Of a stretch of DNA of 32,000 nt, positions 15,054 through 17,978 are shown piece by piece (the first letter of the stretch is position 1; each line of letters opens with the position of its first letter). Source of the stretch: Candidatus Thorarchaeota archaeon (GTDB lineage: Archaea > Asgardarchaeota > Thorarchaeia > Thorarchaeales > Thorarchaeaceae); contig SHMX01000003.1 of NCBI GenBank assembly GCA_008080745.1, forward strand, positions 390,001 to 422,000, written 5' to 3'. A model generated the notes under the pieces. It had not been told where the DNA came from, made no database searches, and saw nothing but the letters and a program-made list of their open reading frames with translations. A program made the translations under genes and the position numbers.

Positions 15054-15467
15054 ATGGAGAAAATCACAATGCCAGAGTTCTCATTTCGACAATACTGCAG
15101 TGTGTGCGGAAACAAAATCCAACATACAATAAAAGTAGCCATTGCACCAGAGATGACCCGTGCGGAGGTAACCTGTGATAAATGTCAGGACCATACGAAC
15201 ATGCTTCTGACCACATGTCCAGATTGTCTGAAGGCCTTTCAGTACTTCATCTCAGATTTGGATTTTGTAGAGGAAGTTCAACGTTTGTCTGGTGCCTATG
15301 TAAGACTGATTGCAGGAATTCGAGACAGCTTGAAAGAAGTGATTGAAGAATTCAAGGTACCCGTACCAAAGAAATGGTCTGTTGGTTTAGAATGCACATG
15401 TGGGAATGAATTCACTGCTGAAGTGCCATTACCCCAATTAGAGGATATGAAGAGTGGAACCAGCTAG
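15054..15467 (+). CDS. Cys-rich putative Zn-binding protein
   Basis: CSVC, CDKC, CPDC and a distal CTC give eight cysteines in four pairs. Confidence 0.8.
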   Translation: MEKITMPEFSFRQYCSVCGNKIQHTIKVAIAPEMTRAEVTCDKCQDHTNMLLTTCPDCLKAFQYFISDLDFVEEVQRLSGAYVRLIAGIRDSLKEVIEEFKVPVPKKWSVGLECTCGNEFTAEVPLPQLEDMKSGTS

Positions 15468-15513
15468 AAGAAAATAACTCCGAAAAGTCTAGCATTCTAC
15501 GTTACTAAGAGAA

Positions 15514-15975
15514 CTATTCTACTACTACTATCTCTGCATTCAGATGAACGGGACAGCTCATTGAATTAGAAACTACGCAGTAACGATGAGCTCGATCAGC
15601 TGCCTTCTCCATTTTCTTCTTGTCCTTTGCTGTAGGGACAGTGATGGTGGCATTGATAGTCATTTCAGCAAATTCCCAACCATATTCGCCCTGTTTGAGA
15701 TGACCCTCTACGGAGATGTCAAAAGAATGAAATTCTGCACGATATTTTTTCGACACCCCAGAGAGTGACACACCATAACAAGACACTGCAGATGCTAAAA
15801 ATAGATCTTCTGGAGATAAAATACCCTCTGGAGATTCCTCCCAGAAATCAGGAGGTGTAGCAACCTCGAACTCGGGCTTCCCGGCAATCCTAATGCTAAC
15901 AATCTTGTCGCTTACAAATCTACTTGTCAATTCATATTTGTGCTCCTCGGTCATGTAACCACCAACATCCATCAT
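15514..15975 (-). CDS. OsmC/Ohr-family protein
   Basis: SPEDLFLASAVSCY and the second Cys in RYCVVSNS. The start may be MTEEH. Confidence 0.9.
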   Translation of the reverse strand: MMDVGGYMTEEHKYELTSRFVSDKIVSIRIAGKPEFEVATPPDFWEESPEGILSPEDLFLASAVSCYGVSLSGVSKKYRAEFHSFDISVEGHLKQGEYGWEFAEMTINATITVPTAKDKKKMEKAADRAHRYCVVSNSMSCPVHLNAEIVVVE

Positions 15976-16055
15976 ATTTCCTTCAAATTGAATGATGTGG
16001 TAGTGGAAATTTTACAAAAATCAAAGAAGATATTAGGAAGTTCTGCAGGACTATT

Positions 16056-16179
16056 AGTGGTGGTCGAGGTTGCAGGGCACCTAGTTTCTGTAAACCTTCA
16101 ATCAGTACGATTGTAAGGCAGACCATGCCCTCATAACTCCCCCCTCCTACCAGTTGCCCCGCGGACCGAAACCACCACT
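16056..16179 (-). ncRNA. Candidate structured ncRNA / cis-regulatory RNA (124 nt), unassigned family
   Basis: The ends pair: GUGGUGGU/ACCACCAC, GGU/ACC, GCGGGGCA/UGCCCUGC and CUGGU/ACUAG. There is an internal hairpin GCCUU-A-CAAUC-GUACU-GAUUG-AAGGU. Several pairs are G:U on the minus strand but A:C mismatches on the plus strand. The element is GC-rich inside an AT-rich intergenic region, with a U-rich tract downstream on the minus strand. Confidence 0.55.
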
Positions 16180-16233
16180 TGATTAATTCAATATCTTGCT
16201 GTGGTTTACGTTTGGAGAAAATCAGTATGCAAG

Positions 16234-17127
16234 TTACCGTTTCTTCCGCAGCTGTCTGATTGCTTCTTTGACATCTTCTTCATCTAATTCTTCTTCGGCC
16301 ACTTCAACGCTCTCACTTCTATCTGCCGCTGATGGCGCAGACATGTCGACAGAGTGACGTACTGCACGCTTCATGACACCTTTTGCTTTGAGTCTGCTTG
16401 CTATTTCGGAGATTTTAGCACTTGAGAGGTCTTCTTCATCGGGCAAATCTTCCATATCGACACCCAAGTCCTCTAGTATCTGTTGCTGAATAGCGATTTT
16501 GTCGATTTCTTCCACCGCAATACCTGTTATTAGTTCTACAAGCAATTCTGCCTTGTTTAACGGGAAGAAATTACCTTTAGTAATCTCAGCAATCTTCTCA
16601 AAAGTCTTTACAGCATTTTGATAACGGGCAATCTCTGGAAAACAGCCTACTGAGTGAATAACGATACCTTTGTCAAATGCTTTCTTAGCTTCGTCCTCCC
16701 AACTAATTCCTTCTGGGCATTTATCCCATCTATCACCAGGTTCAACACCGTGTGGAGGAGCATCTCCTATGAGAATCAGTACTTTTGCAGCATCTGAGAG
16801 ATACTCCATTCGAATAGCTGCTTCAATACCGTCAGCTACCGCTTCAGGTCCGTCTCCACCACCACTGGCAGACATGCTCATGACTGCCTCCTCAATTTTG
16901 TGAGTATCATTAGTCAGATGATGCCGTTGAATAACGTAAGTGGTTTCTTCAGGGGGGTGATCCCGATATGAGATGACTCCAACTCGGAGTCTATGGACCA
17001 GCTCCTCCTTTTTGATTGTTCTAATGATTTGAATAATTTTTTCCTGAACTGTGCGAATATATGGGCCCATTGAGCCTGTATTGTCAACCACGAAGGAAAC
17101 ATCGAGTTGACCGAGTTTATCTGACAT
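16234..17127 (-). CDS. von Willebrand factor A (vWA) domain protein with an acidic C-terminal extension
   Basis: MIDAS-type FVVDNTGSM, YRDH, GGGDGPEAV, LIGDAPPHG. Confidence 0.9.
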   Translation of the reverse strand: MSDKLGQLDVSFVVDNTGSMGPYIRTVQEKIIQIIRTIKKEELVHRLRVGVISYRDHPPEETTYVIQRHHLTNDTHKIEEAVMSMSASGGGDGPEAVADGIEAAIRMEYLSDAAKVLILIGDAPPHGVEPGDRWDKCPEGISWEDEAKKAFDKGIVIHSVGCFPEIARYQNAVKTFEKIAEITKGNFFPLNKAELLVELITGIAVEEIDKIAIQQQILEDLGVDMEDLPDEEDLSSAKISEIASRLKAKGVMKRAVRHSVDMSAPSAADRSESVEVAEEELDEEDVKEAIRQLRKKR

Positions 17128-17288
17128 TGTTTACTTCCTCTCTGTTATCTAAAAATTAGATAGTCGAAAATAGTCCAGCGTGAAACTAGATAAGTATGTT
17201 TACTCCAAAAAATGCTACAGTTTATGAGTCGGTTTTTGCATGTATATTGCATAGTTAGTCCATCATTATGCTGTGAGGAGATGAAGAG

Positions 17289-17978
17289 ATGGAGAAAATC
17301 AAAGAACCATATATTCGAGACTTGTTGATACTACATGGTCTATTTGCAATCTTTACAATAGTAGCATTGATTTTGCCGCTTGGTGTGCAAATTGGACCTA
17401 GGTTATTCGTATTGGTGATTGCATATAATCTTATGATACCCATTGGAGGGTATTATTGGGGGCATAGGGACTGGATCGCATTATGGTCATTTTCATTTCT
17501 AGTCAGTTTGTTTATGATATTCCCCGATTGGTTCTTGGCAGCGGAGCTTGGTGTTCTGGTATTTCCGGCTGATGGACTCTTCAAAATAGGTCCTGTATCA
17601 GGGTATATGGCAGGTCTCTGGACAATTCCAATTTTTATTATTGTCTTTATCGGGCGAGAGATTCAAAAGAATCACTCCTACATGAAGTCGTACCTTGTGG
17701 TAGCTATTCTTTCACTGGTAATCTTTTTCACTGCCGAAGCAACTATGTGGATGCTCCCGTCGTGGTATGCTCAAAATGTAGCAATGATTGGTCCAGTTGC
17801 AATATACATCATAATTCCAGAGATAATACTTGGAATAACAGCTCATGTCGCATATGACATTATAATTGAGAGGAGTGTATTTGCATACATTCTGGCTGCC
17901 TTTTCTGTAATGATCATTTATATGGGAACCATTTCTTTCTTCCACTTGTTAATCGAGAAAATTATTCTGGGAGTTTGA
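17289..17978 (+). CDS. Hypothetical integral membrane protein (6-7 TM)
   Basis: Highly hydrophobic ORF with a PDWFL...VLVFP motif. Family not firmly recognised. Confidence 0.8.
   Translation: MEKIKEPYIRDLLILHGLFAIFTIVALILPLGVQIGPRLFVLVIAYNLMIPIGGYYWGHRDWIALWSFSFLVSLFMIFPDWFLAAELGVLVFPADGLFKIGPVSGYMAGLWTIPIFIIVFIGREIQKNHSYMKSYLVVAILSLVIFFTAEATMWMLPSWYAQNVAMIGPVAIYIIIPEIILGITAHVAYDIIIERSVFAYILAAFSVMIIYMGTISFFHLLIEKIILGV

Follow-up and report, generated by a model that had tools for sequence, protein, structure and literature searches.

The intergenic element at positions 16056-16179 of the window (the whole stretch of 32,000 nt that was analysed) is very probably a genuine small RNA gene, transcribed from the plus strand and belonging to a new RNA family. 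Judging from the genomes compared, this family appears to be specific to the Thorarchaeales and to occur in nearly every searched genome of the order. The explanation preferred for the whole, with a probability of roughly 0.45, is a stand-alone plus-strand small RNA which would mask the ribosome-binding sites of mRNAs. Asgard archaea are the closest prokaryotic relatives of eukaryotes and, to our knowledge, few regulatory RNAs are known from them; literature searches found neither a description of this C-rich-loop RNA family nor a regulatory RNA described from Thorarchaeota. The original prediction, made from the sequence of the window, had offered an undescribed small RNA as one of several readings, and this reading is borne out by the lack of any Rfam match, by covarying stems, by conservation throughout the family and by the occurrence of the core in RNA libraries.

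The element is 124 nt long and lies between two minus-strand genes encoding a vWA-domain protein and an OsmC-family protein; a plus-strand RNA from this site is divergent from OsmC, convergent with vWA and antisense to both. It had been described as a GC-rich island, and a rise in GC content is indeed present but only modest (0.49-0.50 vs. 0.34-0.47 in the flanks). Its failure to match known RNAs was confirmed: the Rfam 15 covariance models, a set that includes RsaE, the RF02278 tsRNA, Y RNA, SECIS, riboswitches, ribozymes and C/D and H/ACA RNAs, gave 0 matches at the gathering threshold on either strand of the whole window, and ARAGORN found 0 tRNA or tmRNA genes in the same stretch. The sole match in a permissive Rfam search of 15950-16260 (up to E 10) was H19_2, which at 14.2 bits against a threshold of 50 is meaningless. 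By BLAST of its own genome (E<=0.001) the element is single copy, with a core common to three further diverged paralogs. The features of the locus are as follows.

15514-15975, minus strand: OsmC-family protein gene (PF02566)
16029-16040, plus strand: TATA-like box GATATTAGGAAG, a putative promoter, ending 15 nt before the closing stem and aligning with CTTATTAGGAAG of the orthologs
near 16053-16058, plus strand: predicted transcript start
16056-16179, plus strand: small RNA body, a closing stem with a C-rich loop (folds; alignment with 20 orthologs)
16056-16064, plus strand: 5' strand of helix P1, AGUGGUGGU, pairing with 16171-16179
between P1 and P2, plus strand: 3x3 internal loop
16068-16079, plus strand: 5' strand of helix P2, GGUUGC-A-GGGCA, pairing with 16155-16167
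16094-16123, plus strand: lineage-specific 30-nt insertion inside the loop, forming a hairpin (about 16095-16103 with 16109-16118)
16124-16133, plus strand: loop motif A, CAUGCCCUCA, in invariant columns of the three alignments described below
16135-16152, plus strand: loop motif B, AACUCCCCCCUCCUACCA, containing the anti-Shine-Dalgarno (anti-SD) core CCUCC and invariant or nearly so in 61 sequences of all subtypes
16155-16167, plus strand: 3' strand of P2, UGCCC-CG-CGGACC (plus-strand fold and subtype-1 alignment)
16171-16179, plus strand: 3' strand of P1, ACCACCACU (plus-strand fold and subtype-1 alignment)
16180-16200, plus strand: U/pyrimidine-rich stretch after the stem, a possible 3' end
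16234-17127, minus strand: vWA-domain protein gene (PF00092/PF25106)

In the plus-strand fold the window copy has 20 stem pairs, only one of them G-U, with nine Watson-Crick pairs in P1 and 11 pairs in P2. The loop presents, in this order, UUUCUGUAA, a private hairpin, motif A and motif B. Motif B, including CCUCCUA, is unpaired in this fold, and the loop is almost free of G and should therefore be single-stranded. The RNA gene of the window is predicted to measure about 125-140 nt.

BLAST of the region against relatives gave matches in 35 of 36 genomes of the same family, with a core of 30-40 nt that is nearly identical. The exact core motif occurs in 80 of 85 genomes of family f1 (1-8 matches each), the carriers being named Thorarchaeota MAGs in public records, and in 0 of 315 genomes from 32 other Asgard families; a reversed-pattern control also gave 0. 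Four copies are present in the genome studied here, namely that of the window and those at C1:305276, C3:125192 and C4:258383. Three subtypes can be distinguished by the short linker between motifs A and B. Subtype 1, the kind found in the window, comprises 25 distinct copies, 21 of which are head-to-head with OsmC. Subtype 2 comprises 86 distinct copies, most of which are flanked by a 571-aa radical-SAM gene and a PhzF-like gene, and subtype 3 and variants have settings such as a site adjoining a membrane protein gene. Orthologs are syntenic across 16 genera. The vWA gene adjoins the RNA in only four orthologous loci, the gene at that place being variable. A covariance model built from a single subtype (model R1, subtype 2) matched 25 of 26 f1 genomes, the one sister-family genome searched and none of the 124 genomes from other Asgard families; the score of the window copy with this subtype-2 model is poor (15.5 bits, E 0.22). 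The covariance model and the motif permit annotation of the RNA in all Thorarchaeota MAGs.

The neighbourhoods of these copies have some features of their own. A DUF6989 membrane protein is encoded on the plus strand at 17289-17978 of the window; in vWA-less genomes its gene follows the subtype-1 RNA directly in 3' direction on the same strand, so that vWA looks like a later insertion between the two. On the other side of OsmC, a 137-aa protein encoded at 15054-15467 (plus strand) contains four CxxC-type pairs and has weak matches to DnaJ-CXXCXGXG/double zinc ribbon domains; it adjoins OsmC in most Thorarchaeota loci examined and the OsmC/zinc-ribbon pair is conserved. Tandem subtype-2 copies, 331 nt apart and in the same orientation, occur at G012:C26:68237-68646 and L133:4258-4619, and the RNA gene seems to have been duplicated there recently. 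Beside the subtype-2 RNA of the genome studied here (G000:C1, about 305500-308600, locus L040 and beyond) there are three ORFs of 77-96 aa, each of which repeats the C-terminal end of the radical-SAM protein (MMHFQDPY.FDLERV.HCDINYS.PDGR.IPFC.MNT); other genomes have the single 571-aa gene in their place, and the three ORFs may be repeated gene fragments or represent a rearranged locus.

The structured RNA proposed for this site gains support from covariation among its homologs. This was examined in two MAFFT alignments in the C-rich orientation, one of 42 distinct subtype-2 sequences (A3) and one of 21 subtype-1 sequences (A4, the window copy and 20 orthologs); the loop motifs were also followed in a set of 61 sequences of all subtypes (A2). 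In the subtype-2 alignment 95.0% of the cells of the 14-bp stem are paired and 11 of the 14 pairs change on both sides, a result reached by 0 of 500 shuffles; slid-register controls are 37-55% paired. In the subtype-1 alignment, window row included, 95.7% of stem cells are paired and nine of 20 pairs are compensatory (0 of 500 shuffles as good); P1 is 97.3% paired with changes on both sides in four of nine pairs, and P2 is 94.4% paired with such changes in five of 11. Across the family the closing stem is GC-rich and spans 20-25 bp (14 bp in subtype 2) around a pyrimidine-rich loop of 45-50 nt. Orthologs have a common core and flanking arms that differ in sequence yet still pair.

The loop behaves in the opposite manner. 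Its motifs UGCCCUCA and ACUCCCCCCUCCUACCA, the latter with the anti-SD core CCUCC, are invariant while the stems covary, and motifs A and B of the window copy are identical to those of the 20 subtype-1 orthologs and of the 61 sequences of all subtypes. UGCCCUCA and ACUCCCCCCUCCUA are retained in the copy from the sister family. The loop is conserved more strictly than most protein-coding sequence. Motif A is displayed in the loop of an inner hairpin (UUUCGU with ACGAAA) in subtypes 2 and 3. This hairpin is supported by the fact that longer linkers lengthen the helix on both sides, the sister-family copy adding UGU and ACA. For a short helix between the core flank and the ACGA segment no compensating change was found. 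The window copy has the features by which the family is recognised, that is, motif A followed by motif B in the loop, a covarying closing stem and a TATA-like box upstream.

Size variation is seen at particular places. The 30-nt insertion at 16094-16123 is missing from 19 of the 20 other subtype-1 copies; at this position L010 carries an insertion of unrelated sequence. Unrelated hairpin insertions of 25-55 nt are found in orthologs L015/L017 (about 1454-1574), L021 (1461-1589), L035 and L010 (1408-1562), at three fixed sites located in the stem, within the flank of motif B and before motif A; that of L010 resembles a partial duplication of the loop. From their sequences, these sites may tolerate expansion like the variable arms of structured RNAs.

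The preferred reading of this architecture is a stand-alone small RNA that would act in trans and be made from its own TATA-like promoter at 16029-16040. The closing stem, whose sequence can vary provided that it still pairs, would hold open the C-rich loop. The exposed motifs UGCCCUCA and ACUCCCCCCUCCUACCA would then pair in trans with the purine-rich ribosome-binding sites of mRNAs (GGAGG/GGGGG), and this pairing would block or tune the initiation of translation. The structure, the strand, the family with its taxonomic range and the occurrence in RNA libraries are established by the data. We infer promoter use, transcript ends, trans action and the targeting of Shine-Dalgarno (SD) sequences; SD masking as the mechanism is advanced tentatively, at somewhat less than an even chance.

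CCUCC(U) has the same letters as the anti-SD end of 16S rRNA. Before the start codons of the genome studied here there is a 6-7-fold enrichment of the SD words GGAGG/AGGAG (7-fold for GGAGG) and an 11-fold one of UAGGAGG (24 seen vs. 2.1 expected). The CCUCCUA of motif B, unpaired in the predicted fold, is the complement of the SD word UAGGAGG, and motif A contains CCCUC. SD masking is favoured, on circumstantial grounds, because a stable stem with unpaired C-rich motifs is the design of RsaE/RoxS-type small RNAs. Genome-wide complementarity to the loop gave 29 12-mers, with about 29 expected by chance. The best start-site match, of 13 nt, is at a MazG-like gene and complements the subtype-2 loop in this genome alone; it is not conserved in 29 orthologs, many of which use G5-type SDs. 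The MazG-like gene itself encodes 98 aa (G000:C2:256385-256445, L190; orthologs L191-L219) and in many genera is preceded by a GC hairpin and a G5-type SD (GGGGG), not GGAGG. For subtype 1, the head-to-head linkage with OsmC suggests that the two might be under shared, possibly redox-related control.

An invariant stretch of some 45 nt is far longer than a seed for base pairing requires, and suggests that a protein, the ribosome or a tertiary fold is involved; it speaks for a partner of the first two kinds at least as strongly as for SD masking. In the rival explanation that follows from this, rather unlikely as it stands, the plus-strand RNA binds a protein or the ribosome, as an RNP scaffold or as a sponge for a protein that binds C-rich motifs, with no antisense role. 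The two motifs and about 45 nt of loop remain invariant through three subtypes and 16 genera with the stems drifting, a pattern typical of surfaces that a conserved macromolecule recognises, and no specific mRNA target emerged; moreover, the multiple copies and the assembly of the RNA from sediment metatranscriptomes, where Thorarchaeota are presumably minor, suggest abundance. However, there is no constant adjacent protein gene, the neighbours varying from OsmC to radical-SAM and PhzF-like genes and a membrane protein gene, and Ro60/TROVE, the one candidate RNP tested, was not found in the 98%-complete genome. A less probable proposal is that the loop is the docking surface of an abundant Thorarchaeota-specific RNP or ribosome-associated RNA and not an ordinary antisense seed. 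For instance, the RNA could mimic the anti-SD and compete against the 30S subunit for every mRNA with an SD; its paralogs could be under the control of different promoters, with the OsmC-linked copy responding to oxidative stress. If true, this would be a global translation-control device without described counterpart in archaea.

A two-state switch, in which a signal exposes or hides the C-rich motifs, is distinctly improbable. Here the invariant GGGC that terminates the 5' arm on its inner side would have two alternative partners, the 3' arm and the GCCC of motif A, and in subtype 2 motif B can also be paired by the purine-rich 5' leader. The partner sequence is indeed present twice, and RNAalifold, run on the opposite strand, picked the internal pairing; in addition, the 5'-arm GGGC is invariant and its 3'-arm partner drifts through G-U. 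A complement to motif B of at least 6 nt occurs in 62% of 76 subtype-2 leaders, compared with 16% after shuffling and 5-8% in control flanks; the value of 62% overstates the support since related sequences are not independent. The partners of the alternative pairing are both invariant and hence give no covariation signal, the closing stem of 14-25 bp is far stabler than any alternative, and a leader is missing from subtype 1, the window copy included.

The stand-alone small RNA of the preferred reading calls for a transcription unit of its own. In nearly all subtype-1 orthologs CTTATTAGGAAG is found 18-22 nt upstream of the stem on the plus, C-rich strand, and the GATATTAGGAAG of the window is similar to the words that show the highest enrichment ahead of genes in this genome (TTAAATA, CTTAATA, CTTATAT, TTAATAA). 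Of the 77 distinct upstream regions of subtype 2, 42 contain a sense YTTWAWWAR box; these boxes are concentrated 70-90 nt ahead of the stem, a position that leaves a leader of about 50 nt folding into its own hairpin. Similarity among the paralogs of one genome is confined to about 150 nt that begin with the box and end with the stem. Across the family, pyrimidines make up 74% of the 15 nt that follow the stem; no long U run occurs there, so that the 3' end is a putative one.

Evidence at the RNA level comes from related sequences. For positions 15500-17200 of the window no RNA runs were listed, only two DNA runs, which may represent the source sample. Core words of the subtype-2 paralog are present in 17 runs recorded as RNA, and in four metatranscriptomes from four studies contigs of 84, 90, 184, 540 and 577 nt carry the 59-nt core, four of the five matching it at 99% or more. 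Contig cover of the subtype-2 paralog outside this core is nil, because the contigs come from other species. As evidence of expression these contigs are supportive but weak: they reveal neither the strand nor the ends nor the level of a transcript, and some DNA may be present in RNA libraries.

Action in cis, either as leader or attenuator of a downstream plus-strand gene or as partner of the divergent OsmC promoter, is held to be about as improbable as the switch. It would agree with the OsmC linkage of 21 of the 25 subtype-1 copies and with the same-strand genes that follow the RNA, DUF6989 after subtype 1 in several genomes and PhzF-like after subtype 2. Nevertheless, the next gene on the downstream side in the window, vWA, is convergent, as are downstream genes of other copies, and the contexts vary among copies, which does not suit a riboswitch or 5' leader; locus L016 keeps the RNA without OsmC; and the PhzF-like gene has a separate TATA-like box between itself and the RNA, while paralogs share only the unit of about 150 nt.

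The orientation of the RNA could not be read from the window copy by itself. The architecture first noticed on the minus strand, a long interrupted end-to-end helix that encloses a purine-rich strand and a hairpin of about 10 bp, was reproduced by folding, and the U-rich tract about 35 nt downstream in the minus-strand reading is present in the sequence. An excess of folding energy over dinucleotide shuffles is found on both strands: the minus-strand fold of 16056-16179 has -53.7 kcal/mol (shuffle mean -39.1; z -4.43; 0 of 200 shuffles as good) and the plus-strand fold -40.8 kcal/mol (z -3.10), likewise better than its shuffles. At least three G:U pairs on the minus strand had been read as favouring RNA-level pairing in that orientation. 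The pairs exist, but they fall in internal loops of the plus-strand fold and so do not decide the strand, and the family tallies favour plus. On the plus, C-rich strand G-U exceeds A-C by 66:3 in subtype 2 and 73:10 in subtype 1 (139 vs. 13 in total), and the opposite-strand reading would pair only 84.1% and 80.5% of cells, respectively. Read as the G-rich strand in fixed register, 55 distinct 14-bp subtype-2 stems contain 86 A-C vs. 8 G-U. RNAalifold gives -32.4 kcal/mol for the C-rich strand vs. -13.3 for the opposite strand in subtype 1, and -11.4 vs. -5.6 kcal/mol in subtype 2, and it finds the long stem on the C-rich strand but not on the other. The G-U/A-C asymmetry, the RNAalifold energies and the promoter-like box together place the RNA on the plus strand of the window. 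G-U counts from a single sequence can point to the wrong strand, as they did here.

A structured RNA on the minus strand, either the 3' UTR of the vWA mRNA or a leader of OsmC, is in consequence very unlikely, even though the minus-strand fold of the window copy is the stabler one with its three G-U pairs and both neighbouring genes are on that strand. Besides the strand tallies and the missing stem, the gene adjoining upstream varies among orthologs (vWA in only four) and the conserved TATA-like box between the element and OsmC faces the other way. Both of these assignments, made in the original prediction, fail for a plus-strand RNA, which is divergent from one gene, convergent with the other and antisense to the two.

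A DNA-level repeat (a MITE or another mobile palindrome) or a SECIS element is hardly credible, since the terminal inverted repeats, the several copies per genome, some of them at contig ends, and the minus-strand AUGA are set against a low copy number (only 1-8 per genome, four here), orthologs at the same loci across 16 genera, 0 viral contigs carrying the core, a strand-asymmetric G-U pattern that is a property of RNA and, for SECIS, the lack of a flanking gene with an in-frame TGA. The MITE alternative raised at the outset is thereby refuted. A larger mobile element around the paralogs was rejected as similarity ends at about 150 nt, and a viral origin was rejected on the count of viral contigs. 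A minus-strand micro-ORF (MRAC...) behind a strong SD was also discarded, its stop being unconserved and no synonymous change being seen in >130 copies.

Among known RNAs, archaeal H/ACA guide sRNAs are characterized by an ACA box, a two-sided pseudouridylation pocket and a K-turn (G-A/A-G). The Thorarchaeota RNA is similar in being archaeal and a single long hairpin, H/ACA hairpins measuring about 70-100 nt. By inspection of the sequence, however, it has no ACA box after the stem, no two-sided pseudouridylation pocket and no K-turn (G-A/A-G) beside the conserved 3-nt bulge, and conservation resides in its apical loop instead of in a guide pocket. A hammerhead-like core, K-turn, C/D and H/ACA boxes and BHB motif were absent by inspection, in line with the lack of any Rfam match, and these identities were rejected.

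Y RNAs, the RNA components of Ro60 RNPs, have a long end-to-end stem, a large pyrimidine-rich loop, a size of about 100 nt, a U-rich tail and several paralogs. The Thorarchaeota RNA resembles them in its long closing stem, large pyrimidine-rich loop, similar size, U-rich tail and several paralogs, but it gave no match to the Rfam Y RNA models, and the adjacent vWA protein has no TROVE domain and is present at only four loci. A search for TROVE/Ro60 (PF05731) gave matches in both controls, the genomes of Deinococcus and Bacteroides, but none in the 98%-complete genome studied here, and on this basis the Y RNA/Ro60 reading was rejected.

The SECIS of Lokiarchaeota consists of AUGA, a 9-bp stem, an 11-nt A-rich loop and GA, and is located downstream of a gene with an in-frame UGA (PMC4989117). 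Like it, the element is an Asgard RNA hairpin, and AUGA occurs on its minus strand; this is the wrong strand, and the element lacks the 9-bp stem and the 11-nt A-rich loop. SECIS was rejected on account of this misfit and because TGA read as Sec extends neither vWA nor OsmC.

The betaproteobacterial toxic small RNA family (RF02278, NcS27/S17) has loops with anti-SD-like CCUCC runs, which suggest occlusion of ribosome-binding sites. The Thorarchaeota RNA has no match to it in Rfam and differs in domain of life and architecture, so that the likeness, drawn from descriptions, is functional only.

The nearest counterparts are RoxS and RsaE of Firmicutes, short small RNAs with their own promoter that mask ribosome-binding sites through unpaired C-rich motifs, which pair with the G-rich SD regions of many mRNAs (PMC5419742). 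The Thorarchaeota RNA is like them in being stand-alone, in its unpaired C-rich motifs and in the duplication of the motif within one RNA. It differs in that there is no homology of sequence or structure (no Rfam match on either strand): RsaE and RoxS consist of several small hairpins, whereas the Thorarchaeota RNA has one long closing stem and an invariant loop of 45-50 nt, and, unlike them, it is archaeal and has several paralogous genes per genome. If SD masking is true, the C-rich-loop/anti-SD strategy of Gram-positive bacteria would have arisen independently in archaea, and the RNA would offer a handle on translational control in an uncultured lineage. By analogy, it would be functionally most like the bacterial small RNAs with C-rich loops and anti-SD sequences, a resemblance without common ancestry.
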